From Chlamydiota bacterium (GTDB lineage Bacteria > Auribacterota > Tritonobacteria > UBA1439): 64,000 nucleotides of DNA. Of this stretch, positions 10,023 through 54,343 are shown piece after piece. The translations under genes and the position numbers were made by a program. The stretch is taken from the NCBI GenBank assembly GCA_012729785.1, contig JAAYCL010000036.1, positions 59,174 through 123,173 of the forward strand, given 5' to 3'. Every line of letters begins with the position of its first letter. Position 1 is the stretch's first letter. The notes beneath the pieces are model-generated. The model was not told where the DNA came from, made no database searches, and was given only the letters and a program-made list of their open reading frames with translations.

Positions 10023-10033
10023 CGGGGGCATCG

Positions 10034-10042: not shown

Positions 10043-10079
10043 CGTCCGGTGGCGCCGAAAATCGAAAGGAGTCGGAACG

Positions 10080-10535
10080 ATGATCGAGGGAGTGAAGGTC
10101 AAGGAACTCACGCCCCACGCGGACGAGCGGGGGTACCTCCAGGAGATTGTGCGGAAAGACGAAAAGATCTTCGAGGAGTTCGCCCAGCTGTACGTGTCCC
10201 TGAACTACCCCGGCGTCGTGCGCGCCTGGCACTACCACCGGAAGCAGAACGACTTCATGACCGTCGTCAAGGGTATGGCGAAGATCGTCCTCTACGACGC
10301 GAGGGAGGGGTCGCCGACGCGCGGGGAGATCGACGAGTTCTTCGTGGGGGAGCACCACCGGATACTCATCCGCATCCCCGCGATGGTGATGCACGGCTAC
10401 AAGACGATCGGCGTTGAGCCGTGCCTGCTGATCAATCTGCCCACCCGCTGCTACGATCCGAACGACCCGGACGAGTTCAGGGTGCCCCCGCACGACAACG
10501 ACATCCCGTACGACTGGGCGATCAAGGAGCGCTGA
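10080..10535 (+). CDS. rfbC: dTDP-4-dehydrorhamnose 3,5-epimerase (short cupin form)
   Basis: Cupin RmlC-like motifs (DERGYLQE, WHYHRKQNDFMTVVKG, IPAMVMHGY). It is the first gene of a rfbC-A-B-D array. Confidence 0.8.
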   Translation: MIEGVKVKELTPHADERGYLQEIVRKDEKIFEEFAQLYVSLNYPGVVRAWHYHRKQNDFMTVVKGMAKIVLYDAREGSPTRGEIDEFFVGEHHRILIRIPAMVMHGYKTIGVEPCLLINLPTRCYDPNDPDEFRVPPHDNDIPYDWAIKER

Positions 10536-10579
10536 GCTCCCCTGTGCGGCCGCCGCCGTAAGGGGCGAAAGGAGGAGAG

Positions 10580-11317: not shown

Positions 11318-11337
11318 GGCCCCGGGAGGGGATGACG

Positions 11338-12348
11338 ATGAGGATGCTGGTCACGGGGGGGGCGGGGTTCATCGGCTCCAACTTCATCCGCCGCTGCCTC
11401 CGCCGCGGCACCGCGACGGAGCTGGTGAACCTGGACAAGCTCACCTACGCGGGGAACCTCGACAACCTGAAGGAGGTCGCGCGGGACCCGCGCTACCGGT
11501 TCGTCAGGGGCGATATCGCCGACGCGGAACTGGTGAACCGCCTCGCGGCGGAGCGGTTCGACGCGATCGTCAACTTCGCCGCGGAGACGCACGTGGACCG
11601 CTCGATCGGGGACGCGGGCGATTTCATCCGCACGGACGTCTACGGGACGTTCGTGCTGCTGGAGGCGGCGCGCAAACACAGGATCGGGAGGTTCATCCAG
11701 ATCTCGACCGACGAGGTCTACGGGAGCATCGAGAAGGGGTCGTTCAGGGAGACGGACCCGCTCATGCCCCGCAACCCGTACGCCGCGAGCAAGGCCGGGG
11801 CCGACCGGCTCGCCTACTCGTACTGGGCGACGTACCGCCTCCCGGTGGTCATCACCCGGGCCTCCAACAACTTCGGCCCGTACCAGTACCCCGAGAAGGT
11901 GATCCCGCTCTTCGTCACGAACGCCCTGGACGACATCCCGCTCCCCCTCTACGGCGACGGGATGAACGTCCGGGACTGGCTCTTCGTCGATGACCATTGC
12001 GCCGCGATCGAGTTCCTCCTCGAGAAGGGGGCGGACGGCGAGGTCTACAACATCGGGGGCGGCAACGAGCTCCCCAACGTCGAGCTCACCCGCATCATCC
12101 TCGACTGCCTGGGGAAACCGGCCTCCCTGATCACAAGGGTCAAGGACCGGCAGGGGCACGACCGGCGCTACTCCCTCGACTGCGGCAAGCTGCGGGCGCT
12201 GGGCTGGGCGCCGCGCGCGGGGTTCGCCGAGGCGATCCGCGAGACGGTCGACTGGTACGCGAAGAACGACTGGTGGTGGCGCCCCCTCAAGAGCGGCGAG
12301 TACCTGGACTACTACCGGAGACAGTACGTCGACCGCGAACGATCGTAA
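11338..12348 (+). CDS. rfbB: dTDP-glucose 4,6-dehydratase
   Basis: Starts at LVTGGAGFIGSNF, with a YAASKA active-site Tyr/Lys. Extended short-chain dehydrogenase fold. Alternative ATG starts at 11332 and 11344. Confidence 0.9.
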   Translation: MRMLVTGGAGFIGSNFIRRCLRRGTATELVNLDKLTYAGNLDNLKEVARDPRYRFVRGDIADAELVNRLAAERFDAIVNFAAETHVDRSIGDAGDFIRTDVYGTFVLLEAARKHRIGRFIQISTDEVYGSIEKGSFRETDPLMPRNPYAASKAGADRLAYSYWATYRLPVVITRASNNFGPYQYPEKVIPLFVTNALDDIPLPLYGDGMNVRDWLFVDDHCAAIEFLLEKGADGEVYNIGGGNELPNVELTRIILDCLGKPASLITRVKDRQGHDRRYSLDCGKLRALGWAPRAGFAEAIRETVDWYAKNDWWWRPLKSGEYLDYYRRQYVDRERS

Positions 12349-12376
12349 GCGAGGCGGCGGGGGGGGCGGAAGGGGC

Positions 12377-13264
12377 ATGGCCGCGCGCGGGAAGATGTTG
12401 GTGGTCGGGGCGAACGGGATGCTCGGGCGCGCCCTGATGGAGGCGTGCGCCCGCGGCGGCGACGTCGAGGGCGCCGATCTCCCCGAACTCGACATCACCG
12501 ACGCGGCGGCGACGCGCCGTTTCGTCGAGGCGGCCCGCCCGGCGATCGTCGTCAACGCGGCCGCGATGACCGACGTGGACGGCTGCGAGGCCGATCCCGG
12601 GGCCGCGTTCGCGGTCAACGCCCGCGGGGCCGGCACCCTGGCGGGCGCCTGCCGGGCCGCGGGGGCGCGCCTCGTCCACGTGAGCACCGACTACGTCTTC
12701 GACGGCCTCAAGGGGAGTCCGTACGCAGAGGACGACCCGGTCAATCCGGCGAGCGTCTACGGGAGATCGAAACGCGACGGCGAGGAGGCGGTGCGGCGCG
12801 CCGGCGCCGACTTCCTCATCGTGCGGACCTCGTGGATGTTCGGGGCGCACGGGAAGAACTTCGTGGACACCATCCTGCGGGCCGCGGAGACGCGGCGGGA
12901 GATCGAGGTCGTCGGCGACCAGCGGGGCAGCCCGACCTACGCCCGGGACCTCGCGGGGGCGCTCTGCGGGCTCGCGGCGGCGCGGCGCGCCGGCGTCATC
13001 CATGTCGCCAACAGCGGGGTCTGCTCCTGGTTCGACTACGCGCGGGCGATCCTCGAGATCGCCGGGATCGGCGGCGTCGCCGTGCGGGAGATCACGAGCG
13101 ACCGGCTGAACCGCGCCGCGCCCCGGCCGCCGTGCTCCGCGCTCGACTGCGGGCGCTACGCCGCCTTCGCCGGCGCGCCGATGCGGCACTGGCGCGAGGC
13201 GGTCGCGGAGTATCTGGTTGAAAGGGAGCGCCCGGGCGCGGGCGGTCCCCCGCCGCGGGGGTGA
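12377..13264 (+). CDS. rfbD: dTDP-4-dehydrorhamnose reductase
   Basis: LVVGANGMLG Rossmann fold and a YGRSK catalytic motif. RmlD-like length of 295 aa. Confidence 0.85.
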   Translation: MAARGKMLVVGANGMLGRALMEACARGGDVEGADLPELDITDAAATRRFVEAARPAIVVNAAAMTDVDGCEADPGAAFAVNARGAGTLAGACRAAGARLVHVSTDYVFDGLKGSPYAEDDPVNPASVYGRSKRDGEEAVRRAGADFLIVRTSWMFGAHGKNFVDTILRAAETRREIEVVGDQRGSPTYARDLAGALCGLAAARRAGVIHVANSGVCSWFDYARAILEIAGIGGVAVREITSDRLNRAAPRPPCSALDCGRYAAFAGAPMRHWREAVAEYLVERERPGAGGPPPRG

Positions 13265-14270: not shown

Positions 14271-15473
14271 GTGCCTGCGGCGCCGACTGCCCGGCCCGCG
14301 GGCGAAGCCGCGCCCGTGCTGTTCGTCACCATCAACATGGAGCTCGGCGGGACCGAGCGCCAGCTCTGCGAACTGGCGGCCGGGCTCGATCGCCGGCGCT
14401 TCGCCCCGCGCGTATGCTGCCTGCGCGGCGGGGGGCCGCTCGCCGATACCCTCGCCGCCGCGGGCGTTCCGCTCACCGTCCTCGCCCCGCGCGCCCGTGG
14501 CCGCGCCGGACGGGCGCGGCCGTGGCGGGTCTTTCTGCCGCAGATCCTCGCCCTCTCGAACCTGATGCGGCGGGAACGCATCGCGATCGTCCACGGGCTG
14601 CTGCCGGCCGCCCTGGTGACGGCGGGGTTCGCCGCCCGCCGGGCGGGGGTGCCGGTCCTCGTGACGGGGAGAAGGGGGCTCGGGCGCTACAAGGAGGGGC
14701 GGCCCCTCCTCCGGTTTCTGGAGAATCTGGTGAATCGCTGGGCCGACGCGATCGTCCCCAACTCCGAGGCGGTCCTCCGGGACGTCCTCGCCCGGGAGCG
14801 GATCGTTCCGGAACGGCTCCGCGTCATCTACAACGGGGTGCGGATCCCCTCCTCCCCGCCGCGAGTCGGGCGGCGGGAGATCGCCGGGCGGGAGATCCGG
14901 GGGCCGGTGGTCTGCCTCGTCGCGAATTTCTTTCCCTACAAGGGGCACCTGGATTTTCTCGAGGCGGCGCGGATCGTGCTGGGCTCCTTCCCCGAGACCC
15001 GGTTCGTGCTCGTGGGCGACGGGAGGTTGCGGCAGGCGGTCGAGCGCAGGGCGGCCGAGCCGGACCTCCGCGGGCGCGTCGTTCTCCTCGGTTCCCGCAT
15101 GGACAGCGGGGAGATCATGGCCTCTGCGGACGTGCTCGCGCTCGCCTCGCACCAGGAGGGGTTTCCGAACGTCGTCCTCGAGGCGATGGCGCGGGCGAAA
15201 CCGGTGGTCGCGACGCGGGTCGGGGGGGTCCCCGAGGCGGTGGAGGAGGGCGGCACCGGCCTCCTCGTCCCCCCCCGCGACCCGCCCGCGATGGCCGCCG
15301 CGCTCGTCCGGCTGATCGGGAACCCGGAGGAGGCCGCCGGGATGGGGCGGCGGGGGCTCGCCCGCGCGCGGACGCTGTTCAGCGTCGAGCGGATGGTCCT
15401 GGCGCACGAGGAACTGTACGGGGAGCTGCTGAAGCGGAAGACGTCGGACGGAAGTCGTCTCCCGAGAAACTAG
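14271..15473 (+). CDS. Glycosyltransferase family 4 (GT-B fold)
   Basis: The C-terminal domain carries the GT4 EX7E signature (HQEGFPNVVLEAMARAKPVVATRVGGVPE). GTG start 1 nt after the Trm112-like stop. Confidence 0.8.
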   Translation: MPAAPTARPAGEAAPVLFVTINMELGGTERQLCELAAGLDRRRFAPRVCCLRGGGPLADTLAAAGVPLTVLAPRARGRAGRARPWRVFLPQILALSNLMRRERIAIVHGLLPAALVTAGFAARRAGVPVLVTGRRGLGRYKEGRPLLRFLENLVNRWADAIVPNSEAVLRDVLARERIVPERLRVIYNGVRIPSSPPRVGRREIAGREIRGPVVCLVANFFPYKGHLDFLEAARIVLGSFPETRFVLVGDGRLRQAVERRAAEPDLRGRVVLLGSRMDSGEIMASADVLALASHQEGFPNVVLEAMARAKPVVATRVGGVPEAVEEGGTGLLVPPRDPPAMAAALVRLIGNPEEAAGMGRRGLARARTLFSVERMVLAHEELYGELLKRKTSDGSRLPRN

Positions 15474-15493
15474 AAACGAGGAACGGTATTCAC

Positions 15494-17383
15494 GTGTGCG
15501 GAATCTGCGGGATCGTCTACGGCGACCGGGAGAGGGCGGTCGATCGCGCCACGCTCGAGGCGATGACGCGCCTGATGGCGCACCGCGGCCCCGACGGCGA
15601 GGGCTTTCACCTCGACGGCCCGGTGGGCCTCGGGCACCGGCGCCTGAGCGTCATCGACGTCGAGGGCGGCGTCCAGCCGATGACGAACGAGGACGGCACG
15701 CTCTGGCTGGTCTACAACGGGGAGATCTACAACTTCCGGGAGCTCACCGAGGAACTGAAGGCCGGCGGGCACCGCTTCCGCACCCGCTGCGACACGGAGG
15801 TGATCCTCCATCTGTACGAGGAGCATGGCACCGGGTGCCTGGAGCGGCTCCGCGGGATGTTCTCGTTCGCCCTCTGGGACGGGCGTCGTCGTCGTCTCTT
15901 CTGCGCCCGGGACCGTCTCGGCGTCAAGCCGTTCTTCTATCGGCACGCGGGGAGCGACTTCATCTTCGCCTCGGGCCCCGCGCCGATCCTCAGCCATCCC
16001 GGCGTCGAGCGCCGCGTAGACCTCGAGGCGCTCGACCTCTATTTGACCTACCAGTACGTCCCCGCGCCGTTCTCGATCTTCGCCCGGATGCACAAGCTCC
16101 CCCCCGCGCATTTCCTCGTGCTCGAGAACGGCAACGTCACGGTCGAGCGGTACTGGGAGGCGAACCCGGAGCGCCCCCTCGAGATCGGCTACGACGAGGC
16201 GCGGGCGCGCCTGCGTGATCTCCTCGTCGAGGCGACCCGCCTCCGGCTCGTCAGCGACGTGCCGCTGGGGGCGTTTCTGAGCGGGGGGATCGACTCGAGC
16301 ATCGTGGTCGCCCTGATGAGCCGGGAGGGGGGCGCGCAGGTCAAGACCTTCTCGATCGGCTTCGACGACGAGCGCTACAACGAGCTCCCCTACGCCCGGA
16401 TGGTCGCGAAGCGGTACGGCACCGACCACCATGAGCTCATCGTGAAACCCGACGCCGTCGGCCTCCTCCCGAAGCTTGTCCGGCACTACGGCGAGCCGTT
16501 CGCGGACTCCTCCGCGCTCCCGACCTACCACGTCGCCAGGATGAGCCGCCGCGAGGTCACGGTGGCCTTGAACGGCGACGCGGGCGACGAGCTGTTCGCC
16601 GGCTACGACCGATACCGCGCCTTCTCCCTCGCCGGCCGGATGGGGGCCATACCGGGCGCCGCGCCGCTCGGACGGACGCTCGCCCGGTTTCTCGCCGGCG
16701 CACCGCGCGACAGCCTCCGGGACCGCGCGCGGCGGTTCGCCGAGTCGTTCGGCCTCCCGGGGCCCGCCCGGTACCTGCGCTATGTGGCCTACTTCGGAGA
16801 GGAGGAGAAGGCCCGACTCTACGCGCCGCGGTTCCGGGAGGCGGCGGGCGCCTTCGACGCCCCCGGCCAGATTCGCCGTATCTACGAGGCGTGCCGGATA
16901 CACGACGAGACCGCCCGGCTCCTCTTCACCGACCTGTGCAGCTACCTCCCCGGCGATCTCCTGGTGAAGGTGGACATCGCCACGATGGCGGTCTCCCTCG
17001 AGGCCCGGTCCCCGTTCCTCGACCATCGCCTCGTCGAATTCGCCGCCGCGCTCCCCACGCGGTGGAAAATCTCGGGCGGGGAGGGGAAGCGGATCCTCCG
17101 TGACGCCTGCGCGGATCTGCTGCCTGGGGAGATCCTCCGCCGCGGGAAGCAGGGATTCGGCGTTCCGATCAGCCGCTGGTTCCGCGGCGAGCTCGGCGAA
17201 TATCTCCGGGAGATTCTGCTCGACCCCTCCAGCCTCGGGCGCGGCTACTTCGATCCGGCCCGCGTGCGGGAGCTTGTCGACCATCACCAGCGCGGGTTCC
17301 GCGACCACAGCTACCGGCTCTGGGCCCTCCTGGCGCTCGAGCTGTGGCACCGCGAGTTCATCGACGGCGGGGGGGGCGCGTGA
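15494..17383 (+). CDS. asnB: Asparagine synthetase (glutamine-hydrolysing) family amidotransferase, AsnB/WbpS-like
   Basis: The N-terminus is (M)CGIVG. The Ntn glutaminase domain is followed by a PP-loop (SGGIDSS). 629 aa. GTG start after an AGGA RBS. Confidence 0.9.
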   Translation: MCGICGIVYGDRERAVDRATLEAMTRLMAHRGPDGEGFHLDGPVGLGHRRLSVIDVEGGVQPMTNEDGTLWLVYNGEIYNFRELTEELKAGGHRFRTRCDTEVILHLYEEHGTGCLERLRGMFSFALWDGRRRRLFCARDRLGVKPFFYRHAGSDFIFASGPAPILSHPGVERRVDLEALDLYLTYQYVPAPFSIFARMHKLPPAHFLVLENGNVTVERYWEANPERPLEIGYDEARARLRDLLVEATRLRLVSDVPLGAFLSGGIDSSIVVALMSREGGAQVKTFSIGFDDERYNELPYARMVAKRYGTDHHELIVKPDAVGLLPKLVRHYGEPFADSSALPTYHVARMSRREVTVALNGDAGDELFAGYDRYRAFSLAGRMGAIPGAAPLGRTLARFLAGAPRDSLRDRARRFAESFGLPGPARYLRYVAYFGEEEKARLYAPRFREAAGAFDAPGQIRRIYEACRIHDETARLLFTDLCSYLPGDLLVKVDIATMAVSLEARSPFLDHRLVEFAAALPTRWKISGGEGKRILRDACADLLPGEILRRGKQGFGVPISRWFRGELGEYLREILLDPSSLGRGYFDPARVRELVDHHQRGFRDHSYRLWALLALELWHREFIDGGGGA

Positions 17384-18558
17384 ACCCCCGCCCGGCCAGG
17401 ATCCTCCGGATCATCACCCGTTTGAATATCGGGGGCCCGTCGATCAACGCCATCGCACTGAGCGCCGGCCTCCCCCGGGACAGGTTCGAGACCGTGCTCG
17501 TCTGCGGCCGGCCGGGCGTGGCGGAGGGGAACCTGGCGTCCCGGGCGCGGGAGCGCGGGATACGGCTGATCGAGATCCGCTCCCTGCGGCGCGATCCCTC
17601 GCCCGTGGCGGACGCCGCCGCGCTGGCCCGGCTCATCGAGATCGTCCGCCGCGAGAGGCCCGACATCGTCCACACGCATCTCGCCAAGGCCGGCGCGCTC
17701 GGCCGCATTGCCGCGAAAACCGTCCCGGGCATCCGGACCGTCCACACCTTCCACGGGCACGTCTTCAGCGGCTACTTCACCCCCGCACGCACGCGAATCT
17801 TCCTCGCCGTCGAACGGCTGCTGGCGCGTGGCACGGACAAGATCATCGCCCTCTCGGAGGCCCAGCGGGCCGAGCTCGTCGGCGCCTGCCGCATCGGCCG
17901 ACCCGGGCAGTACGCGGTCATTCCGCTGGGGCTCGACCTCGAACGGTTCGCGGCGAGCCGGGCCCTCCGGGGCTCCCTGCGCAGGGAGCTCGGCCTGGAG
18001 CCGGAGGCGTCCGTGATCACGCTGGCGGGGCGCCTTGCGCCGGTCAAGGACCACCGTCTCTTTCTCGCCGCGGCGCGCCTCGTCCTCGCGGCGCGGCCGC
18101 GGGCGGTCTTCCTCGTCGTCGGCGACGGCGAGGAGCGGCCGTCGCTCGAGCGGGAGGCGCGCACGAGCGGGCTCGCGGACGCGGTGCGGTTCACCGGCTG
18201 GCGCGACGACCTCGACCGCGTCTACGCGGACTCCGACCTGGTGGTCCTCACCTCGCGGAACGAGGGGACGCCGGTCAGCCTGATCGAGGCGTCCGCGGCG
18301 GGGCGCCCGATCGTCGCGACGGCGGTCGGCGGCGTCGGGGACGTCGTGCGGGACGGCGGGAGCGGCCTCCTCGCCGCCGGCCGCGACCCGGCGGAGATCG
18401 CCGCCCTGATCCTGCGGCTCCTCGACGACCCCGCGCGCGCGGCCGCGATGGGGGAGGAGGGGAGGAGGTTCGTCCTCGAGCGGTTCACGAGCGCGAGGCT
18501 CGTCCGCGACGTTGGGGAGCTGTACGGGCGCCTCCTGGAGGAAGGGGGTGCGGGGTGA
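17380..18558 (+). CDS. Glycosyltransferase family 4 (GT-B fold)
   Basis: GTGA overlap with the asnB stop. The EX7E region is SRNEGTPVSLIEASAAGRPIVATAVGGVGDVV. Confidence 0.8.
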   Translation: MNPRPARILRIITRLNIGGPSINAIALSAGLPRDRFETVLVCGRPGVAEGNLASRARERGIRLIEIRSLRRDPSPVADAAALARLIEIVRRERPDIVHTHLAKAGALGRIAAKTVPGIRTVHTFHGHVFSGYFTPARTRIFLAVERLLARGTDKIIALSEAQRAELVGACRIGRPGQYAVIPLGLDLERFAASRALRGSLRRELGLEPEASVITLAGRLAPVKDHRLFLAAARLVLAARPRAVFLVVGDGEERPSLEREARTSGLADAVRFTGWRDDLDRVYADSDLVVLTSRNEGTPVSLIEASAAGRPIVATAVGGVGDVVRDGGSGLLAAGRDPAEIAALILRLLDDPARAAAMGEEGRRFVLERFTSARLVRDVGELYGRLLEEGGAG

Positions 18559-19361
18559 GCGAAACGGAGACGGCGTTCGAGTTCGGGCGGAACTGGGAGC
18601 GGTTCGTCGCGCGCGCCCTCGACGACGGGCGGATCGACATCGCGCGCCGGCATATCCTGGAGTTCCTCGAACTGCCGGACCTCCGCGGCCGTTCGTTCAT
18701 CGACGTCGGGTGCGGGAGCGGGCTCTCCTCGCGCGCCGCCCTCGACGCGGGGGCGGCGAGGATCATAAGCTTCGATTGCGATCCCGATTCGGTGCGCGCA
18801 ACCGAACGGGTGCGGGAAATGAGCGGGAACCCGCCGCACTGGGCCGTGGTGCGCGGCTCCGTCCTCGACGACGCGTTCATCGCCTCGCTCGGCCGCGCGG
18901 ATATCGTCTACGCCTGGGGGGTGCTCCACCACACCGGCCGGATGTGGGACGCCGTCGAGCGCGCATCCCGGCTCGTCGCCGACGGCGGGCTGTTCTACCT
19001 CGCGCTCTACACCACGACCCCGCAGTCGACGCACTGGGTACGGGTGAAGAAACGGTATAACGCGGCCTCGCCGGCGCGCAGGCGGCTCATGGAGGCCGCG
19101 TATTTCCTGCGCCACACCTGCGCGTCCAACCTTGTGCGCGGGAAAAGCCCCCTCGCCTTCATCCGACACTACCGGAGGTCGCGCGGGATGTCGTACCTGA
19201 CGGACGTGCGGGACTGGCTGGGGGGGTGGCCGTACGAGGATGCGGAGATCGGGGAGGTGCTGCATTTCTGCAACAGGAAACTCGGCCTCGAGCTGCGCAA
19301 CATCCGGACCGGCGAGGCCAATACCGAGTACCTGTTCAAAGGCTCCATGGCGGAAGGATAG
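18555..19361 (+). CDS. Class I SAM-dependent methyltransferase
   Basis: Motif I FIDVGCGSGLSS. GTGA overlap with the upstream GT4. Confidence 0.7.
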   Translation: MSETETAFEFGRNWERFVARALDDGRIDIARRHILEFLELPDLRGRSFIDVGCGSGLSSRAALDAGAARIISFDCDPDSVRATERVREMSGNPPHWAVVRGSVLDDAFIASLGRADIVYAWGVLHHTGRMWDAVERASRLVADGGLFYLALYTTTPQSTHWVRVKKRYNAASPARRRLMEAAYFLRHTCASNLVRGKSPLAFIRHYRRSRGMSYLTDVRDWLGGWPYEDAEIGEVLHFCNRKLGLELRNIRTGEANTEYLFKGSMAEG

Positions 19362-19368: not shown

Positions 19369-20949
19369 ATGGCGACAGGGGCGGTGCGCGCGTTGTGCCT
19401 GGGGCTGCTGATCGTCTTCGCGACGCTCCCCGCGCTCGTCTGCTACCGAACGCTCCCCGGCCGGGATTCAGGCGGGGCGCTCTACGCGGGGTGGCGGATC
19501 CTCCAGGGGGACGTTCTCTACCGGGACGCGTGGGACCACAAGGCGCCCGCGATCTATTGCATCAACGCGCTCGGCCTCCTCCTCGGCGGGGGCTCGACCT
19601 GGGGCGTCGCGGGCCTCGAGCTGCTCCTCCTCCTCGCGGCGGCGATGCTGGGCTGGTCCGCGCTCCGGGATGCGTTCGGCGCGGCGCCGGCGTTCTTCGC
19701 CACGGTCGCGTGGATCTTCACCCTCTCCCTCGTGCACGACGGCGGAAACCTCCCCGAGGGGTACGCGCTCCCGCTGCAGTTCGCGGCGCTGTATCTTTTC
19801 GCCCGATCAGACCCCGCGGCCGGCTTCTCGGCGAGGGGAATGCTGATCGGCGCGTCGGGCGGCCTCGCCTTCTGCATCAGGCCGAACCTCGCGGGGATCT
19901 GGTGCGCGATCCTCCTCTGCGTCGCGCTGCGCGCGTTTCGACGGGGACGGGTGCGCCCGGGCGCCGCCGCGGCCGTTCTGGCCGGCGGGGCGCTGACGCT
20001 CCTCCCGTTCGCCCTCTGTCTGGCCGCCCGCGGCGCGCTCCCCGACGCGCTGGAGGCGGTCTTCGTCTACAACCGCGCGTACGCGGCCGCGACGATGCGC
20101 GACCGTCTCGCGGCGCTCGCCAGGGGGTGGCGACTGATGCGGGTGTCGGGGCTGTCCCTCACCGCGCTGCTGGGCTGGTGCGGCGGGTGCGTGTTCCTGC
20201 GCGGCGGCGGGGCGGGGGAGGGGACGCGGGGCGCGCTCGTGCAGTGCGCGGTCGTCGCCTTTCCGATCGAACTCGCGGCCGCGTCCGTCTCGGGGCGCGC
20301 GTATCCGCACTACTACATGGCGTGGCTGCCTGTCTTCGCGGTGCTCTCCGGCTTCCTCGCCTACGCCGTGCTCCGCGCCATCCCCCTCCGGTTCGCCGCC
20401 TCGGGCGGGGAGGCGGCCGGCGCGTACCGCGTCCGGGGCCTCGCGCTTTTCGCCCTCCTCGCGGTGATGGCGGGCGGGCCGGTCCATGCGCCGGCGCGGC
20501 GGATCGCCCTGTTTCGTTCCGCGCCGGAGACGGCGGCGAAGAGGACGGCGGTCGACTACCTGCGCACGCACACCGGGCCGGATGAGACGGTGCTCGTCTG
20601 GGGAGCGGAGCCGTCGGTCAATTTCCTCTCGAGGAGGAAATCGCCCTCCAGATATTCGTTCCAGTACCCGCTGTATACGAACGGGTACCGGAACGCGGCG
20701 GCGGCGGCGGAGACGTTCCTGGCCGAGCTCTCCTCCCGCCCCCCGGCGGTCGTCATCGACACCTCCGCCACCAATCTCCTGGTCCCCCCCCTTGACCCGG
20801 CGTCGAGGAGGAGACGGCGCCTGCCGTCCGCCTTCGATCCCCTCCCTCCCGCAATGGGGAATCTGTTCGACCTCCTCGCCGCCCGGTATCGCCGCGTGGA
20901 CGGCACGGGGGTACTGCACTGGGCGGTCTACCGGCAGGCGGGGCGCTGA
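19369..20949 (+). CDS. PMT_2/ArnT-like GT-C membrane glycosyltransferase (putative polyprenyl-phosphate-sugar dependent)
   Basis: Multiple transmembrane helices. The first loop carries YRDAWDHKAPAIY (the DxKPP-like PMT_2 motif). 526 aa. Confidence 0.6.
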   Translation: MATGAVRALCLGLLIVFATLPALVCYRTLPGRDSGGALYAGWRILQGDVLYRDAWDHKAPAIYCINALGLLLGGGSTWGVAGLELLLLLAAAMLGWSALRDAFGAAPAFFATVAWIFTLSLVHDGGNLPEGYALPLQFAALYLFARSDPAAGFSARGMLIGASGGLAFCIRPNLAGIWCAILLCVALRAFRRGRVRPGAAAAVLAGGALTLLPFALCLAARGALPDALEAVFVYNRAYAAATMRDRLAALARGWRLMRVSGLSLTALLGWCGGCVFLRGGGAGEGTRGALVQCAVVAFPIELAAASVSGRAYPHYYMAWLPVFAVLSGFLAYAVLRAIPLRFAASGGEAAGAYRVRGLALFALLAVMAGGPVHAPARRIALFRSAPETAAKRTAVDYLRTHTGPDETVLVWGAEPSVNFLSRRKSPSRYSFQYPLYTNGYRNAAAAAETFLAELSSRPPAVVIDTSATNLLVPPLDPASRRRRRLPSAFDPLPPAMGNLFDLLAARYRRVDGTGVLHWAVYRQAGR

Positions 20950-21025: not shown

Positions 21026-22138
21026 ATGTGGGCCGCCGTCTACCTTTACCTGTTCGTCTCCGCGCTCTTTTTGAGCCTGCTCCTCACGCCGCTCGCGCGG
21101 CGCGCGGCGCTCCGGGCCGGGATGGTGGACGTCCCCGGCGCGAGGAAGGCGCACCGCAGGCCGACGCCCCTCCTCGGCGGCCTCGCGATCTTCGCCGCCG
21201 TCGCCCTCGTCATCCTCCTCAACGCCGCCCTCGCCTTTCTCGCCTCCCGCGGCGGCCCGCTCGCGGCGCGGGTCCCCGCCGGCCTCTCGCCGTACCTCGC
21301 GGGCGCCCTCTCGGCCTTCCCGAGGCTGGCGGCGATCCTCCTCGGCGGACTCATCGTCCTCCTGCTCGGCATCCGCGACGACGCGGTCGACCTCCCGCCC
21401 GGCCGCAAGCTTCTCGGGCAGCTGTTCGTGGCGGTCTCGATGGCCGCCCTCGGCGTGCGTATCACCCTCTTCATCCCGAGCGCTTTCGTCGGGGCGGTCG
21501 TCACGGTCGCCTGGATCGTAGTCGTCGTCAACTCGTTCAACCTGCTCGACAACATGGACGGCCTCTGCGCGGGCGTCGCCCTCATCGCCTCGGCCCTGAT
21601 GGGCGGCATCTCCGCGCTCAACGGCAACTGCTTCATCGCCTCCCTGTTCGCCGTTCTGGCCGGGGCGCTCCTCGGTTTCCTGCGCTACAACTTCCCCCCC
21701 GCCTCGATCTTCATGGGGGACGCGGGGAGCATGTGCATCGGCTACCTGATCGCCGTGCTGAGCGTGATGCAGACCTGGTACCGGCCCGCCGAGGCCGGCC
21801 CGCTCGCCGTGGCGATGCCGCTCGTCATCCTCGCCGTCCCCCTCTACGACACCCTGTCGGTCGTCGGCATCCGTCTCTCGCGCGGGGAGAGCATCTTCCG
21901 GGCCGACCGCCGCCACTTCTCGCACCGCCTCGTCAAGCTCGGGATGAGCGCGCGGGGGGCGGTCCTCTTCGTCTGGCTCGTCTCCCTCTGCACCGGGCTC
22001 TCCGCCTTCTTCCTGCCGCGCGTCGGCTGGAGGGGCGGGGCCGTCGTCTTCGTCCAGGTCGCCATGGTCGTCTCCGTGATCGCCATCCTCGAGTATTTTG
22101 GCGCGGGGAAAAACGGGAACCGGCATGAAGGCGGATAG
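21026..22138 (+). CDS. wecA: Undecaprenyl-phosphate N-acetylhexosamine-1-phosphate transferase, WecA/MraY (PNPT) family
   Basis: NSFNLLDNMDGL and FMGDAGSMCIGY motifs of the polyprenyl-phosphate N-acetylhexosamine-1-phosphate transferase superfamily. About 10 transmembrane helices. Confidence 0.85.
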   Translation: MWAAVYLYLFVSALFLSLLLTPLARRAALRAGMVDVPGARKAHRRPTPLLGGLAIFAAVALVILLNAALAFLASRGGPLAARVPAGLSPYLAGALSAFPRLAAILLGGLIVLLLGIRDDAVDLPPGRKLLGQLFVAVSMAALGVRITLFIPSAFVGAVVTVAWIVVVVNSFNLLDNMDGLCAGVALIASALMGGISALNGNCFIASLFAVLAGALLGFLRYNFPPASIFMGDAGSMCIGYLIAVLSVMQTWYRPAEAGPLAVAMPLVILAVPLYDTLSVVGIRLSRGESIFRADRRHFSHRLVKLGMSARGAVLFVWLVSLCTGLSAFFLPRVGWRGGAVVFVQVAMVVSVIAILEYFGAGKNGNRHEGG

Positions 22139-23153
22139 AACGGCGCCGTATGACGCCTGGCTGCACTGGTACCTGTCCGAGCGGTGCACCCTCAACTGCG
22201 ACTTCTGCAGCTACGTCCCCCCGAGCGGCCTGCCGAAGCCCGTGGCCCCGGTGACGGTGATCGACATACCCGCCCTCCTGCGCACGCTCGAACGCGCCGG
22301 CAGGGTCTTCAAGATAAGCTTCACCGGCGCGGGCGAGCCTTTCCTGGTGCCGAACATCGTGGAGGCGTGCCGACGGCTCACGGAGCGGCACTACGTCGAA
22401 TTCGTCACCAACCTGACCCCCCCCGCGGTCGAGCGATTCGCCTGCACGATCGATCCGGCGCGGGTCACCGTCATCCACGCCTCCCTGCACAGCGCGGCGC
22501 TCGAACAACGCGGCCTGCTGGAGACCTACATCCGCCACTTCCTGCTGCTGAAGGAGAACGGGTTCGCCCTCAGGTGCGCGGAGCTGGCGCATCCGGCGCT
22601 GCTGCGGGGGGTCCCCGCGCTGCGCTCCCGACTCGGGGCGCGGGGGATCGAACTGTCCTTCTTCCCGTTCTTCGGATCGTACCGCGGGAAACGGTACCCG
22701 AACGCCTTCAGCGCCGGGGAGCTGGCGGTGTTCGGCCTCGGCCCCGACGACCTGCGCATCTTCTCCCCCGACGGGCGGTTGTGCAACGCGGGGTACAACG
22801 TCGCCGTGGTCAGGGAGAACGGCGAGATCCGGCCGTGCGACGCGCTCGGGGAGCGGCTTGGGAACATCTACTCGGGCATCCGCTTCAGGAGGGGGCTGCT
22901 GCGCTGCCCGTTCGGCAGGTGCGTCTGCCCGCTGGATGTGTACGACCCGCGCCTGTTCGCCGCGGCGAAGGAGGCGCACTCCTCGGCGCCACTGGGCGCC
23001 CTGCGCGCGTGGGCGGCGGGAAGAGGCGCGGCGATGCGGGACCTGCTCCCCCATGCCGTGAAGCGAGGCGCGCGCCGCGTCGTGCCGGAGCCGGTTCTGG
23101 CGTTCCGGCGCCGCTGGCGGGCGCGGAGGCGAGCGGGGGGCGCGGGTGCATAA
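22125..23153 (+). CDS. Radical SAM domain protein, possibly with a C-terminal auxiliary Cys cluster
   Basis: The N-terminal ERCTLNCDFCSY is the CX3CX2C radical-SAM cluster motif. A C-terminal Cys-rich segment (CNAGYN...RPCDALG...LLRCPFGRCVCPLD) suggests a SPASM/twitch-like second cluster. Its start overlaps the wecA 3' end. Confidence 0.6.
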   Translation: MKADRTAPYDAWLHWYLSERCTLNCDFCSYVPPSGLPKPVAPVTVIDIPALLRTLERAGRVFKISFTGAGEPFLVPNIVEACRRLTERHYVEFVTNLTPPAVERFACTIDPARVTVIHASLHSAALEQRGLLETYIRHFLLLKENGFALRCAELAHPALLRGVPALRSRLGARGIELSFFPFFGSYRGKRYPNAFSAGELAVFGLGPDDLRIFSPDGRLCNAGYNVAVVRENGEIRPCDALGERLGNIYSGIRFRRGLLRCPFGRCVCPLDVYDPRLFAAAKEAHSSAPLGALRAWAAGRGAAMRDLLPHAVKRGARRVVPEPVLAFRRRWRARRRAGGAGA

Positions 23154-25212
23154 TCCCCGTCTCGAGGCGAACCGGTTTCTCGACGCGGCGCGCGTCGCCG
23201 CGGCGCTCCTGCTCGGGGGGCTGCTCGTCGTCCGTCTCCTCTGGACGGGCGTGACCTATCCCGAGAGCGACGCGTTCGTCTCCATCGCGGCCCTCGCGCT
23301 ACTCGCGGCGCTGCTCGCGGCGGTCGGCTGCGCGGGGGGGGAGTGGCGGCTGCGCGCCTCCGCGGACGGGGGCGCCTTCCTCTACCTGCTCGTGCTCGTC
23401 GCCCTCTCCATCGCCGCCCCGCGCCGCTGGCTGGCGCGGGGCGTCCTCCTGCAGGCCGCCGCCTGCACCGCCGCCTACCTCGTCGCCGCCGACGCCGCCG
23501 TCTCCCGCCGCGCGCGCCTCCTCCTCTGCGCCGCCTTCATAACCGGGACGTTGGCCGTCGCCCTCTACGGCCTCTACCAGCATTTTCAAGGATTCGAGGA
23601 GACGCGCCTGGCGTTCGCCGCGGCGGGGGGCGCGCGGGCGGACCAGGACTCCGCGTTCGCGATCCGTCTGCGTTCCGGGGCGGTCTTCTCGACCTTCTTC
23701 TACCCGAACGCGCTCGCGGGGTTTCTCGTCGTGGCGATCCCGTTCGCGGCCTCGATCCCCCTGCTGCGGAGGGAGGATGCGTCGCCGGTCGTATCCGCCG
23801 GCTGCCTCGGCCTCCTCGCCGCGGCGACGGCGGCGTGGGGTTTCCTCCCCGGCCTCCGCGGGAAGCCGCTTCTTTTCGCGGGGCTCTTCCTCGCCGCCTC
23901 CGCCCTCGCCGCGTGCGTGCGCGTTGCGGAGCTGCGGGCGGGAAGGCTTTTGCGCGCCTTCCTCCTGCTTTCCCCGGCGGCCCTGGCCGTGTGGGCCATC
24001 CTCCTCACCGACTCCGAGGGGGCCTGGCTCTCCCTCGCGGCCGCCTGCGCGTTGGGGGCGCTCCTCCTCTCCGGGCGTCTCATCGCCGCCGGGGCGCTGT
24101 TTCTCGCCGTCGCCGTCCTCTTCGCCGCGCTCCTGCTCACGGGGACGCTCCCGGACGGTTTGGCGCGGAGTCTCGACGTGCGCATGGACTACTGGCGCGC
24201 GGCGGCGGCGATCTGGCGGGAGCACCCGCTCGCGGGGCTGGGGCCCGGGACGTTCGCGGGGGCCTATCCCGCCTACAGGCTTCCCGGATCCGAGGAGGGG
24301 CGGATGGCGCACAGCGCCTACCTCGGTCTCGCGGCGGAGACCGGCGCCGCGGGGCTCGCCGCGTTCCTCGCGATGGCGGGGGCGTGGCTCGTCTCCCTGC
24401 ACGCGGGGGCCCGGAAGGGAGAGCCGCTCGCCGCGGCCGCCTTCGTGGCGGTCTGCGCCTTCCTCATGCACAACGCCGGGGATGTGGGCCTTACGGTGCC
24501 GGGGACGACGTTCGCCCTCTGGTACCTCGCCGGTCTCGGGGCCGGCGCGGCGACGCGCCCGGGGGAGCGGAGACGGCTCTCGCGCGCGGCGGGGGTCTCC
24601 CTCGCGGCGCTGCTCCTCGCCGCCGCCGCGGGGGGCGTCGCGCCCCGGGCGCGCGCGGAGATCCGCCGCCTCGCCGCCGAACGTCTCGCCGGCGCGGGGA
24701 GGCGCGCGGAGGCGCTCGCGGAGATGGAGAAGGCGCTCCTGGCGGAGCCCGACAACGCCGACTACTGGCTGCGCAACGCCGCGCTGGAGGCGCACCGGGG
24801 AGGCGACAGGCACGCGCTTCCCTCCTACGCGCGCGCCGCCTCCCTCGGGAGGGGGATCCCGACATACCATCTTCAGCACGCGTTCTGCCTCTGGCGCCTG
24901 TCAAAAGCGGACGCCGATCCCCGACTCGCCGCCGCGGCGATCGCCGAGCTCCAGGAGGCGGTCCGGTGCAACCCGCACGATTTCGACTACCGCCTCCTGC
25001 TGGGGCACTGGCTCGAAATCACCGGACAGGGGGAGGCGTCTCTGATAGAATACCGTCGCGGCCTCGCCCTCGTCGAGACGGCGCGCGCGAAGCCGCACCG
25101 GACGCGCCGCCACGGCCCCGCGGCGATGGAGAGACTGCAGGCGGCAATCATCGCCAAGATCGAGGAGGCGGAGCGGGAGGCGGCGCCGCCTGCCGCGGAG
25201 GGGGAGAGATGA
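23146..25212 (+). CDS. O-antigen ligase/polymerase (Wzy_C) domain membrane protein fused to C-terminal TPR repeats
   Basis: About 12 transmembrane helices. The periplasmic loop [23 protein letters not shown]...[15 protein letters not shown] matches the Wzy_C/O-antigen ligase signature. The C-terminal 200 aa contain TPR-like helices. GTG start overlaps the radical SAM stop. Confidence 0.7.
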
Positions 25213-25661
25213 AGGTGCTGGTGCTGCACGGTCCCAACCTCCAGCTCCTGGGGGCGCGGGAGCCGGAGACGTACGGCGAGACGACCATCGAGGAGATCGA
25301 CGCGCGGCTCAGGGCCGTCGCCGGGGAGGAGGGGCTCGAGATCGAGATCGTCCAGTCGAACCACGAAGGGGAGATCGTCGACCTGATCGGCCGCGCGCCG
25401 GGGCGCTATGACGCGCTCCTCATCAACCCCGCGGCGTACACCCACACGAGCGTGGCGATACGCGACGCGATCGCCTCCGTGCGCATCCCCGCCGTGGAGG
25501 TCCACCTCTCCAATATCCACGCCCGCGAGGAGTTCCGCCGCATCTCGCTCATCGCCCCGGTCGCCGTCGGCATGATCTGCGGCTTCGGCCCCGGCAGCTA
25601 CTACCTCGGCCTTCGGGCCGTCGCCGGGCTGCTCAAGGGGCGCGGGAATGCCGACCGCTGA
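25209..25661 (+). CDS. aroQ: 3-dehydroquinate dehydratase, type II
   Basis: [21 protein letters not shown] and [12 protein letters not shown] motifs. 150 aa. ATGA overlap with the upstream gene. Confidence 0.9.
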
Positions 25662-26733
25662 CCGGCTCGTTCGGCTTCGGGCGCTGATGCGCGCGGAGGG
25701 GGTCGCCTCCCTCCTCGTCACCGACCTCCCCTCCATCCGCCACCTCGCCGGCTTCACGGGGAGCGCCGCGCGGCTCCTCGTCACGCCGCGGCGGGCCCAC
25801 CTCGTCACCGATGGCCGCTACCGAATCCAGGCCGCCCGCGAGGCATTCCGGTGCCGCGTCGCCGTCGCCGCTCCCGGGAAGGCGTTCGAGGCGGTCGCCG
25901 ACGCCCTGCGGCGGGACGGCGTGCGCACACTCTCGTTCGAACCCGACGCCATCACCTACGCCGACTGGCGCGCCCTGGCCCGCGCATGCGGGCGCCGCGT
26001 CCGCCTCGCGCCGGCCCCGCCGCTCGCCGCGCGGCTCCGCGCGGTCAAGGACCGCGCCGAGATCGCGCTCCTCCGGCGGCTCGCCCGGATGGCCGACGCG
26101 GTCCTGGCCGCCTGCCGCCCGCGCCTGAGGCCCGGGATGACGGAAGGCGAGATCGCCGCCCTTCTGGAGCGGGCGTCGCTCGACGCGGGGGCGGAGGAGG
26201 CGGCGTTCCGGCCGATCGTCGCCGCGGGGGCGCACGCGGCGATGCCGCACCACCGCCCGGGGGCCGGGACCGCGCGCCGCGGCGCGCCGCTCCTCATCGA
26301 CTTCGGAACGAGGATGCGCGGGTACAATTCCGACTTGACGCGCACGTTCCATTTCGGTAAAGTCACCGCACGGTATGAGGGGGTCTACCGGACCGTTCTC
26401 GATGCGCAACGCGCTGCCCTGCAGGCAATAAGGCCGGGGGTGCGCGCGGGGGACGTGGACCGGGCGGCGCGCGACGTGATCGCCGCGGCGGGCCACGCCG
26501 CCTGCTTCGGGCACAGCCTCGGGCACGGGATAGGCCTCGAGGTCCACGAGGAGCCGCGCCTGGGGCCCGGGGTCGCCACGAAACTCGAGGCGGGGATGGT
26601 CTTCACCGTCGAGCCGGGGATCTATCTGCCCGGGTGGGGCGGCGTGCGGATCGAGGATATGGCGGCGGTCACCTCGACCGGCTGCGTCGTGCTCACCGGA
26701 TCCGCCAGGGAACTGGGAGACAGCGTGCTATGA
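25648..26733 (+). CDS. pepP: Xaa-Pro aminopeptidase / M24 family peptidase
   Basis: Creatinase N-domain plus an M24 pita-bread metal-site motif ([19 protein letters not shown]). Confidence 0.85.
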
Positions 26734-27164
26734 ATATCAAGGAGATCAGGGAGATCGTGGGGATGATGAACGAGAACGAGATCACCGAGTTCGTGATCGA
26801 GCGGGAGGGGATCAAGCTGGCGATCCGGAAAAACCCCGGGGCGGGCGCCGCGCCCGCGATCGTCCAGACGGCGATCCCCGCCGCGGCGGCCTCCCCGTCC
26901 GCGGCGCCGCCCGCGAAGGAGGAACCCGCGGGGGTCTACATCGTGTCGCCGATGGTGGGCACCTTCTACTCCGCGGCCTCCCCCGACTCCCCCCCGTTCG
27001 TCGAGGTCGGCGCCGAGGTGCACGAGGAGACCGTCGTCTGCATCATCGAGGCGATGAAGGTGATGAACGAGATCAAGGCCGAACGGAAGGGGAGGATAGT
27101 CGAAATCCTCGCGGAGAACGGGGAGGCCGTCGAGTTCGGGAAGCAGCTCTTCAGGATCGGGTAG
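26730..27164 (+). CDS. accB: Acetyl-CoA carboxylase biotin carboxyl carrier protein
   Basis: A Pro/Ala-rich linker then a biotinyl domain with EAMKVMNEI. ATGA overlap with pepP. Confidence 0.85.
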   Translation: MNIKEIREIVGMMNENEITEFVIEREGIKLAIRKNPGAGAAPAIVQTAIPAAAASPSAAPPAKEEPAGVYIVSPMVGTFYSAASPDSPPFVEVGAEVHEETVVCIIEAMKVMNEIKAERKGRIVEILAENGEAVEFGKQLFRIG

Positions 27165-27179
27165 GGCGGAGGACGGGGG

Positions 27180-28541
27180 ATGTTCCAGAAGATCCTGGTG
27201 GCCAACCGCGGGGAGATCGCCCTGCGCGTCATCCGCGCCTGCAAGGAGCTGGGGGTGCGCACCGTCGCGGTCTACTCCGACGTCGACGTCAACTCCCTGC
27301 ACGTCCGGATGGCCGACGAGGCGATCTGCATCGGCCCGGCTTCCAGCGCCAAGAGCTACCTCAACATCGCCGCGATCATCAGCGCGGCGGAGATCGCCGA
27401 CGTGGAGGCGATCCACCCCGGCTACGGTTTTCTCGCGGAGAACCCGCACTTCGCCGAGATCTGCGAGAGCTGCGGCATCCGGTTCATCGGCCCAAAGCCG
27501 GAGAATATCCGCCTGATGGGCGACAAGGTGCAGGCGCTGCGCGCCGCGCGGGCGGCGGGGATCGCGATCCTCCCCGGGAGCGAGAGGGCGTTGACCGACC
27601 GCGACGAGGCGCTCAAGGTGGCCAGGCGCATCGGCTACCCGGTGATGATCAAGGCGGTGGCCGGCGGCGGGGGGAGGGGGCTGCGGCTCGCCCACAACGA
27701 TGTGAGTCTGGTCAACGCGTTCTTGACCGCCCAGACCGAGGCGGAGGCCGCCTTCGGGAATCCCGGGGTCTACATCGAGAAGCGCCTCGATCAGCCGCGC
27801 CACGTGGAGGTCCAGATCCTCGCCGACGCGCGGGGAACCGTGGTCCACCTGAACGAGCGCGACTGCAGCATCCAGCGGCGGCACCAGAAGCTGATCGAGG
27901 AGTCCCCCTCGCCGCGCCTCTCCCCGAAGCTCCGGGCGCGGATGGGGCGGGCCGCGGCGCGCCTGGCCGAGTCGATCGGCTACGTGAACGCCGGGACGGT
28001 GGAGTTTCTGCTCGATCGCAACGACGCCTACTATTTCCTCGAGATGAACACCCGCATCCAGGTCGAGCACCCGGTCACCGAGATCGTGGCGCAGGTCGAC
28101 ATCGTCAAGGAGCAGCTCCGCATCGCCACCGGCGATCCGCTGCGGATCTCGCAGGGCGAAGTCAAGGTTCACGGCCACGCCATCGAATGCCGGATCAACG
28201 CCGAGGACTGGGAGCGGGACTTCGCCCCGTGCCCGGGGAGGGTGACCGCCTACCGCGCCCCGGGCGGCCCCGGGGTGCGGGTGGACTCGCACGTCTGCGC
28301 CGGGTACGAGATCCCGTCGCAGTACGACTCGATGGTCGCGAAGCTGATCTGCGTCGGGCACACGCGCGAGAGCGCGATCGCCAGGATGCTGCGCGCCCTC
28401 GACGAGTACCAGATCGAGGGGGTCAAGACCACGATCCCCTGCCACCGCTTCATCATGAGCGACCCGCGCTTCCGCAAGGGGAGGTACTACACCGATTTCG
28501 TGGACGAGCTGATGGAGATCCAGCGGAAGAAACGGGGGTAG
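27180..28541 (+). CDS. accC: Acetyl-CoA carboxylase biotin carboxylase subunit
   Basis: MFQKILVANRGEIALRVIRACKELG and the full ATP-grasp biotin carboxylase fold. 453 aa. Confidence 0.95.
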   Translation: MFQKILVANRGEIALRVIRACKELGVRTVAVYSDVDVNSLHVRMADEAICIGPASSAKSYLNIAAIISAAEIADVEAIHPGYGFLAENPHFAEICESCGIRFIGPKPENIRLMGDKVQALRAARAAGIAILPGSERALTDRDEALKVARRIGYPVMIKAVAGGGGRGLRLAHNDVSLVNAFLTAQTEAEAAFGNPGVYIEKRLDQPRHVEVQILADARGTVVHLNERDCSIQRRHQKLIEESPSPRLSPKLRARMGRAAARLAESIGYVNAGTVEFLLDRNDAYYFLEMNTRIQVEHPVTEIVAQVDIVKEQLRIATGDPLRISQGEVKVHGHAIECRINAEDWERDFAPCPGRVTAYRAPGGPGVRVDSHVCAGYEIPSQYDSMVAKLICVGHTRESAIARMLRALDEYQIEGVKTTIPCHRFIMSDPRFRKGRYYTDFVDELMEIQRKKRG

Positions 28542-54318: not shown

Positions 54319-54343
54319 ACGGCGGGCGGCGAAAGGGAGATCG

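Follow-up and report, generated by a model that had tools for sequence, protein, structure and literature searches.

In the O-antigen ligase WaaL, two arginines bind the diphosphate of undecaprenyl diphosphate (Und-PP) and a histidine activates the acceptor, and Wzy polymerases of the same clan carry an aspartate or a glutamate at the position of this ligase histidine (PMC10920833). The PglL and PglS classes of protein O-oligosaccharyltransferases are recognised by two further domains, PglL_A and Wzy_C_2, alongside Wzy_C (PMC12645811). Here, we analyse a gene of this kind in a 64-kb stretch of DNA (the window) from a 115.7-kb metagenome scaffold. The scaffold belongs to a metagenome-assembled genome of Candidatus Auribacterota (Aureabacteria), within the Planctomycetes–Verrucomicrobia–Chlamydiae (PVC) group. 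The gene, called the target below, encodes a WaaL-fold membrane protein which ends in a domain of tetratricopeptide repeats (TPR).

The target adds an uncharacterised member to a kind of enzyme that is known and annotated, the O-antigen ligases, with the glycosyltransferase C (GT-C) fold of WaaL (CAZy GT121-like). Very probably it transfers glycans en bloc, as a ligase or an oligosaccharyltransferase, and is not a polymerase. Our tentative reading, to which we give a probability of about 0.43, is that its acceptor is lipid A-core and that it serves as the housekeeping lipopolysaccharide (LPS) ligase of its lineage. The data show the fold, the catalytic motifs, the topology and the conserved pairing with a wecA-like gene; the donor, the acceptor and the task of the TPR domain are inferred.

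The gene and its family

The following features, with transmembrane (TM) helices numbered from the N-terminus, describe the gene and its central domain.

23146-25212, + strand: target gene, encoding a WaaL-fold protein of the O-antigen-ligase family (688 aa, 15 TM helices) whose C-terminal part is a periplasmic TPR domain
23980-24369, + strand: Wzy_C domain, aa 279-408, from the Pfam match and the helix map; TM9-TM12 with a large periplasmic catalytic loop, aa 333-390

The open reading frame (ORF) at 23146-25212 is a real gene, since its codon-position GC content (0.77/0.58/0.91) is of the coding type and the public annotation of the source contig calls a gene with exactly these boundaries. 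These GC values are typical for the genes of the window, which is ~70% GC and has nearly all its genes on the + strand. The identical protein (MCC6449766.1 / NLW94639.1) is named "O-antigen ligase family protein" at NCBI. Pfam Wzy_C (PF04932) matches residues 279-408 of the target with 63.3 bits (E 2.8e-17, gathering cutoff 31.7) and is found in all 19 members of the target family. The polytopic core and the large periplasmic loop are those of the WaaL fold. A description drawn earlier from the letters alone, that of a 688-aa polytopic protein with a WaaL/Wzy_C periplasmic loop, thus agrees with the domain score, the 15-helix model and the catalytic loop at 333-390.

Among curated NCBIfam models, IctB (TIGR00947) scores best against the membrane domain. 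However, its 50.5 bits (E 1.6e-13) fall far under the cutoff of 366, and membership in this family is rejected. The model TIGR03097, a 'putative O-glycosylation ligase', matches weakly.

Catalytic residues

We aligned 165 relatives with MAFFT, using E. coli K-12 WaaL as the reference. Three positions of the target are of particular interest.

24181-24183, + strand: R346, the arginine of S-x-x-x-R (S-x-G-A-R in the family consensus), which aligns with R288 of E. coli WaaL
24310-24357, + strand: H389 with the signature H-S-x9-G-x-x-G (aa 389-403, followed by L404), aligned with E. coli WaaL H338
24016-24018, + strand: E291, the glutamate of T-x-S-E-G, at the alignment position of the first diphosphate-binding arginine (R215 of E. 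coli WaaL; R191 of Cupriavidus metallidurans WaaL, CmWaaL)

The position of R346 is an arginine in 164 of the 165 relatives, and its E. coli counterpart R288 binds the phosphates of Und-PP (PMC10920833). The SLGAR motif of the target is also paired with that of WaaL by hhalign, at a statistically weak level. H389 is a histidine in every relative (165/165), and E. coli WaaL shares the motif H[NS]x9GxxG with all 19 family members. Both residues correspond to R265 and H313 of CmWaaL, and the target carries the general ligase motif H[NSQ]x9GxxG. Judged from the alignment, R346, H389 and H[NS]x9GxxG read as the signature of a ligase or oligosaccharyltransferase, not as that of a polymerase.

A Wzy-type polymerase would instead join lipid-linked repeat units, and the TPR domain would be a built-in scaffold for chain length or export. 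We consider this very unlikely. Pfam Wzy_C does cover some polymerases, TPR scaffolds are known in polysaccharide secretion systems, and a separate Wzy candidate was not seen in the cluster. However, the clan polymerases have Asp or Glu (PMC10920833) where the target and all its relatives have histidine. Furthermore, the gene is conserved and syntenic amid varying glycan genes and stands alone among housekeeping genes in Verrucomicrobiia, which is the opposite of a serotype-specific Wzy. The window and the adjoining 10 kb on the left (74 kb in total, the scope of all searches for these partners) gave no Wzx, Wzz, Wzc or Wza. The properties of the polymerases classed as BP-Pol (CAZy GT122-135), namely the acidic residue, a location in a variable cluster and a Wzz or Wzc partner, are therefore not those of the target, and a simple Wzy polymerase is rejected. 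The earlier note on this DNA had named a simple Wzy with a Wzx/Wzz pair nearby as the result that would overturn its proposal; the ligase histidine, the conserved synteny and the lack of a Wzz in the 74 kb speak otherwise.

The first diphosphate-binding arginine is replaced by E291 in the target. Across the 165 relatives this position is most often Lys (75), followed by Arg (33) and Glu (27). All 23 sequences of the close clade have the glutamate, and the wider TPR-fused class mostly has Lys or Arg (T-x-S-[KR]-G). The exchange may mean that the donor is bound through a metal bridge, that the donor is a different one, or that the invariant R174 compensates. This last residue lies in periplasmic loop 3 (Q145, R154, R174, FST..YPNALAG), which is strongly conserved across phyla and gives no alignment to E. 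coli WaaL.

Both peculiarities, the glutamate in place of a phosphate-binding arginine and a loop 3 shared across phyla but unaligned with E. coli WaaL, would suit a ligase for another acceptor, such as peptidoglycan, a membrane lipid or an exopolysaccharide anchor, or an IctB-like envelope protein of unknown chemistry. In that case E291 would point to another donor, such as a sugar linked through a monophosphate, or to binding across a metal bridge. IctB is the closest curated model, several orthologues bear the Joint Genome Institute (JGI) name 'putative inorganic carbon transporter', and the AsnB-like and glycosyltransferase family 4 (GT4) neighbours score best against exopolysaccharide (XrtA/PEP-CTERM) models. 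Like IctB of cyanobacteria, the target is a conserved, single-copy membrane protein of the Wzy_C type in which a periplasmic loop bears a motif of the NPN-L type; we know of no indication of TPR in IctB. However, all these family matches are far below their cutoffs, and neither an exosortase nor export genes were found in the window. In addition, the catalytic arginine and histidine of WaaL are intact and the wider class retains Lys or Arg at position 291. In our judgement this explanation is improbable.

Membrane topology and the TPR domain

The AlphaFold model of the target (pLDDT 85.3, pTM 0.88) contains 15 membrane helices. Compared with the WaaL core of 12 helices, three segments stand out.

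23761-23934, + strand: helices TM7 and TM8, aa ~206-263, inserted as a pair into the 12-TM WaaL-like core; clade-specific by alignment occupancy
24583-24636, + strand: extra helix TM15, aa 480-497, a helix in the model and hydrophobic in all members
24640-25182, + strand: periplasmic TPR domain, four helix pairs (aa 499-648) followed by a conserved C-terminal helix (aa 658-679)

The charges of the short loops orient the protein. In the target family, Lys and Arg add up to 14.1 in the loops predicted to be cytoplasmic vs 2.2 in the periplasmic ones, which fixes the N-terminus inside and the catalytic loop (aa 333-390) outside. The basic loop at aa 469-480, which averages 3.1 Lys and Arg across members, is placed inside, and TM15 would therefore carry the TPR domain into the periplasm. 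This helix occurs in 90% of the wider class and, by alignment, not in E. coli WaaL. The TM7-TM8 segment is fully occupied in the alignment of the close clade (1.00), against 0.35 for the wider class and 0.26 for E. coli WaaL, and it is missing from one relative (P0019).

In the target sequence itself, Pfam recognises the repeats only below threshold (E 0.004-0.04, under the gathering scores). The TPR domain is nevertheless real, since TPR_14 is matched by 18 of the 19 family members (best E 2.9e-10), the family profile matches solved TPR proteins over profile positions ~505-640 (9qhb, E 3.4e-19; human OGT, 1.6e-13) and AlphaFold builds four helix pairs (499-648) with a capping helix (658-679). 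Tandem 34-residue helix-turn-helix repeats are thus seen both by TPR profiles and in the structure model, and the 'about 200 aa of TPR-like helices' reported previously was an accurate description. Roughly 90% of the wider class shares the domain, which E. coli WaaL lacks. The capping helix is specific to the close clade, where a P-x-R-[IT]-R-R-H motif stands just before it. In our reading, the TPR domain serves to dock a partner or the acceptor.

The differences to WaaL, as known from C. metallidurans (7TPG/7TPJ) and E. coli K-12 (both GT121), can now be collected. The target has 15 TM helices vs 12, to which the clade-specific TM7-8 pair and the extra C-terminal TM helix contribute, and adds ~190 residues of periplasmic TPR. 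It has Glu for the first phosphate-binding Arg (E. coli R215) and a loop 3 that does not align with E. coli WaaL. Finally, its gene lies beside wecA, aroQ and accBC and not in a core-oligosaccharide cluster. The earlier proposal of a periplasm-facing, TPR-fused WaaL-fold transferase of lipid-linked glycans is supported by the fold, the motifs and the topology.

Conservation of the gene and its position

Close relatives of full length form a small family of ~six clusters at 50% identity. Within this clade the gene order wecA-like, target, aroQ, pepP, accB, accC, Asp23-like, phosphofructokinase (PFK), gmhA is kept, and the target, always at this locus, retains 40-87% identity. The wecA-like gene adjoins it in the loci L001-L006, L008, L009 and L032. 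In contrast, the glycan genes farther upstream vary between genomes of the clade; among them are flippases of the Wzx/MurJ type, additional PMT_2 enzymes and methyltransferases.

Orthologues in Verrucomicrobiia (28-33% identity) stand directly before accB-accC-PFK. In the locus L019, the orthologue (9587-11386) lies between tmk/holB and accB/accC/PFK with no glycan genes nearby. The linkage of a TPR-fused ligase to accB-accC-PFK, a synteny with genes of fatty-acid synthesis at the level of the phylum, is seen in this locus and in ~20 other Verrucomicrobiia loci (L010-L034). Because the gene keeps its place as the glycan genes change, and because the Verrucomicrobiia copy sits among housekeeping genes, a single-copy, donor-tolerant gene in a fixed position fits a housekeeping ligase and not a serotype-specific Wzy.

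The Wzy_C-TM-TPR design is widespread: 945 representatives match at E <= 1e-30, most of them in one contiguous stretch that runs from the catalytic loop through the final membrane helices into the TPR. Among the aligned relatives from outside the clade, 130 of 138 carry the TPR domain. The design is therefore common (hundreds of protein clusters) and already annotated, although database names are limited to 'O-antigen ligase', 'TPR repeat protein' or 'putative inorganic carbon transporter', the last being the JGI name. Our literature search on Wzy_C-TPR proteins, Verrucomicrobia glycoproteins and IctB function found no functional study of this class.

The acceptor

Several observations favour lipid A-core as the acceptor. 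The genes gmhA and rfaE domain II belong to the conserved synteny, an ArnT-like enzyme of the lipid A-modifying type is encoded in the window, and no other ligase candidate was seen in the 74 kb. In addition, an LPS ligase is what the base rate for Gram-negative bacteria would predict.

A number of points weigh against this assignment. WaaL has 12 TM helices, ends in the cytoplasm and bears no extra domain, whereas the target has 15 helices and a periplasmic TPR; the WaaL proteins compared end after TM12 and have no TPR (E. coli, 419 aa; 7TPG, 403 aa). TPR domains usually bind proteins. The target lacks the first diphosphate-binding arginine (E291), no sequence-level match to the solved WaaL structures was found, and IctB, the nearest curated model, scores far under its cutoff. 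The Wzy_C-TPR fusions that we found in the literature are only protein O-oligosaccharyltransferases, WsfB and PglL (PMC2943079), and sequence cannot separate WaaL from O-oligosaccharyltransferases (PMC12645811). Lastly, a canonical WaaL could be encoded outside the 74 kb covered.

The target may alternatively be a general protein O-oligosaccharyltransferase. Such an enzyme would glycosylate Ser, Thr or Tyr of periplasmic and surface proteins presented by the TPR domain, in the manner of PglL and WsfB but outside the PglL family. We hold this to be a credible alternative, though not a probable one. One argument for it is architectural: a Wzy_C core followed by an extra TM helix and a periplasmic, helical C-terminal domain parallels the known O-oligosaccharyltransferases. 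WsfB and PglL are described with C-terminal TPRs (PMC2943079), and the C-terminal Wzy_C_2 domain of PglL is predicted to be periplasmic (PMC12645811), as is the TPR domain of the target, whose closest solved relatives include the substrate-binding TPR of OGT. PglL and PglS of Neisseria, Burkholderia and Acinetobacter likewise have an extra membrane pass and a periplasmic C-terminal domain behind the Wzy_C core. They move the donor in one piece from Und-PP, as is proposed for the target, and they are often unlinked to their many targets. A single conserved copy embedded among housekeeping genes fits a general glycosylation system, and the match to TIGR03097 points weakly in the same direction.

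However, the target has neither PglL_A (PF15864) nor Wzy_C_2 (PF11846), and its C-terminal domain is a canonical TPR. Both domains are absent from all 19 family members at E <= 1, and none is found in the C-terminal 213 aa of the target at E <= 10. Membership in the PglL family is thus rejected. Of the two roles suggested by the earlier note, PglL-like O-glycosylation or envelope polymer ligation, both remain plausible as functions, but the first does not hold as a family assignment.

WsfB, the S-layer O-oligosaccharyltransferase of Paenibacillus alvei, resembles the target by description, as a Wzy_C protein with C-terminal TPR (PMC2943079). Its cluster also places an Asn-synthase homologue (wsfA) and an initiating phosphotransferase with the transferase, and the related Geobacillus cluster (WsaB/WsaA) has rml genes as the target cluster does (PMC2943079). 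The rml genes, the Asn-synthase homologue and the initiating transferase near the target therefore resemble S-layer glycosylation clusters (PMC2943079). However, WsfB comes from a Gram-positive host with the S-layer acceptor gene in its cluster, and no S-layer gene lies near the target; the likeness is one of description. In the loci examined, an acceptor candidate (pilin or S-layer protein) was not found beside the gene, and no report of protein glycosylation in these phyla was found in the literature. Furthermore, TPRs serve also as scaffolds of polysaccharide export. The eukaryotic TMTC1-4 and OGT are glycosyltransferases fused to TPRs which select protein substrates, and the C-terminal domain of the target has some of its best matches, by sequence and by structure, in the OGT repeats. 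Since catalytic folds and donors differ, this likeness is a generic TPR one and an analogy only.

The sequence evidence does not decide between a protein and lipid A-core as the acceptor. The boldest version of the protein reading would extend it to the whole wider accBC-linked Wzy_C-TM-TPR class of Verrucomicrobiota and related PVC phyla. All its members, the target family included, would then be general protein O-oligosaccharyltransferases whose TPR docks the acceptors, with the donor site rewired (Glu for Arg) in the Auribacterota-like clade. As a whole, we consider this extension unlikely.

The glycan operon

The target stands in a run of overlapping or near-abutting genes which continues into housekeeping genes: GT4, AsnB-like, GT4, methyltransferase, GT-C, WecA-like, radical S-adenosylmethionine (SAM) protein, target, aroQ, pepP, accB, accC. 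Genes for dTDP-L-rhamnose supply lie farther upstream.

9036-10022, + strand: flippase-like membrane protein; LPG_synthase_TM E 6e-45, and TIGR00374 'flippase-like domain' above cutoff
9036-13264, + strand: the flippase-like gene followed by rmlC, rmlA, rmlB and rmlD (dTDP-L-rhamnose supply), from Rml domain matches and gene calls
14271-19361, + strand: cytoplasmic glycan-assembly block, from domain matches and gene calls; start and stop codons overlap or nearly touch
14271-15473, + strand: GT4
15494-17383, + strand: AsnB-like amidotransferase
17380-18558, + strand: GT4
18555-19361, + strand: SAM methyltransferase
19369-20949, + strand: divergent GT-C (PMT_2-like) of the glycan operon, 526 aa; PMT_2 20.6 bits vs cutoff 26.1
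21026-22138, + strand: WecA-like polyprenyl-phosphate N-acetylhexosamine-1-phosphate transferase, 370 aa; Glycos_transf_4 E 3e-32
22125-23153, + strand: radical SAM protein with CxxxCxxC, 342 aa; Radical_SAM E 3.7e-9, above cutoff, and a gene call
25209-28541, + strand: housekeeping genes aroQ, pepP, accB and accC, co-oriented; the aroQ start overlaps the target stop (ATGA)

These genes suggest a pathway in four steps. First, the WecA-like enzyme would start the glycan on undecaprenyl phosphate at the cytoplasmic face. Second, the adjacent GT4 enzymes, the amidotransferase and the methyltransferase would extend and modify it, with dTDP-rhamnose from the rml genes. Third, the lipid-linked glycan would be flipped to the periplasmic face. 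Fourth, the target would transfer it in one piece to the acceptor; R346 would hold the diphosphate and H389 would activate the acceptor hydroxyl, as in WaaL. TM15 would set the four-repeat TPR in the periplasm, where it could dock the partner or the acceptor.

For the flipping step, a Wzx is missing from the window and the 10 kb to its left, as the earlier note had stated for the window, and a flippase-like TIGR00374 protein is present upstream of rmlC. This protein (9036-10022), directly before rmlC, is the only flippase candidate in the window. The lack of a Wzx is specific to the target genome and not a feature of the system, as had been implied, because the same cluster carries Wzx/MurJ flippases in close relatives. 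The divergent GT-C at 19369-20949 was considered as the missing Wzx and rejected: it is homologous neither to the flippase of L003 nor to the PMT_2 gene of L001, and its homologues are GT-C enzymes. The 10 kb to the left of the window hold only TolC/MacAB, Rrf2, pstSCAB and a reductase, and a second Wzy_C protein was not seen anywhere in the 74 kb.

The WecA-like protein has TIGR02380 (WecA) as its best NCBIfam model (E 3.5e-34, below its cutoff). The GT4-AsnB-GT4 block recurs in the relatives' loci L003, L005 and L006. For the AsnB-like protein and both GT4s the top models are those associated with XrtA/PEP-CTERM exopolysaccharides (TIGR03108, 643 bits; TIGR03088, ~170 bits), all below cutoff, and there is no exosortase in the window. 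About 5 kb downstream of the target, gmhA and rfaE domain II (ADP-heptose synthesis, the latter above cutoff) follow in conserved synteny.

The radical SAM gene sits between the wecA-like gene and the target and overlaps both. At this place it is absent from all relatives examined (L001, L003, L005, L009). The protein is weakly similar to the STM4011 family, and the glycan cluster of L009 encodes a B12-binding radical SAM protein at another place. Modification of sugars by radical SAM enzymes may thus recur in these clusters. At rmlB, an intact ORF (~11340-12348; dehydratase/epimerase domains, E 3e-75) is opposed by public calls on the same scaffold which list just a 40-aa ORF on the opposite strand (L041, 2443-2565); this looks like a gene-calling gap in the source annotation.

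The two PMT_2-type enzymes

A second enzyme of the PMT_2 type lies near the left end of the window.

2616-4238: ArnT-like GT-C; PMT_2 34.8 bits vs cutoff 26.1

By its matches to the ArnT structure 5ezm (E 3.6e-20) and to the NCBIfam ArnT model (E 2e-37, 129 bits vs an equivalog cutoff of 567), this protein is a genuine ArnT-like GT-C but not an ArnT equivalog. It is encoded ~15 kb upstream, flanked by an opposite-strand reductase and a HAD hydrolase, with dcd, NUDIX, thiD and the pst genes (pstSCAB) nearby. Given this unrelated neighbourhood, it is not part of the glycan operon and is probably a modifier of lipid A or of another envelope component. In the contig collection, 132 blocks are indexed with exactly this protein, and the organism therefore recurs in many samples.

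The enzyme at 19369-20949 has no match in NCBIfam or PDB sequence searches, and its PMT_2 score stays below the cutoff. Most of its homologues have a precomputed PMT_2 domain, one is named glycosyltransferase family 39 (GT39), and L003 has an orthologue at the same position. Through these orthologues it is best regarded as a divergent GT-C, and it alone of the two PMT_2-type enzymes belongs to the glycan operon. The description of both proteins as PMT_2/ArnT-like thus stands for the first and needs this qualification for the second. The idea that they form one set with the target is rejected, given the ~15 kb and the unrelated genes around the ArnT-like gene.

Other features of the window

Three ORFs of the type I phosphodiesterase/nucleotide pyrophosphatase family (48161-52320 and 55110-56897) flank cysD/cysN-like sulfate-activation genes (53455-55594). 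Two of them overlap in different frames (48161-50356 and 49705-52320), so that gene boundaries there are ambiguous. Two ORFs, 6407-7402 and 52537-53454, have coding-type composition without a Pfam or NCBIfam match; at the position of the first, the public gene call (L044) gives a 311-aa protein without a family. On the - strand, the gene of a protein with a zinc ribbon and TPR (59734-60699) has two neighbours, one for a beta-propeller protein like PQQ/BamB (60700-62295) and an ORF whose only match, to ATP-grasp, is weak (58755-59786). Together, these - strand genes (58755-62295) form a small, envelope-looking group which is unrelated to the target.

Implications

The points of note in this protein are the periplasmic TPR, the accBC linkage that spans phyla and the charge reversal at position 291. 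If the target is an LPS ligase, the annotation is routine, and the useful point would be that enzymes of the WaaL type can bear a periplasmic TPR. If protein glycosylation is its function, the gene would mark a phylum-wide system in lineages for which we found none described in the literature. General O-glycosylation would then operate in Verrucomicrobiota, Auribacterota and their relatives, poorly studied groups that abound in soils, sediments, digesters and guts. The enzymes would represent a donor-tolerant class of transferases of possible use in glycoengineering. Finally, a conserved glutamate where the characterised WaaL needs an arginine raises a testable question on how Und-PP is bound.

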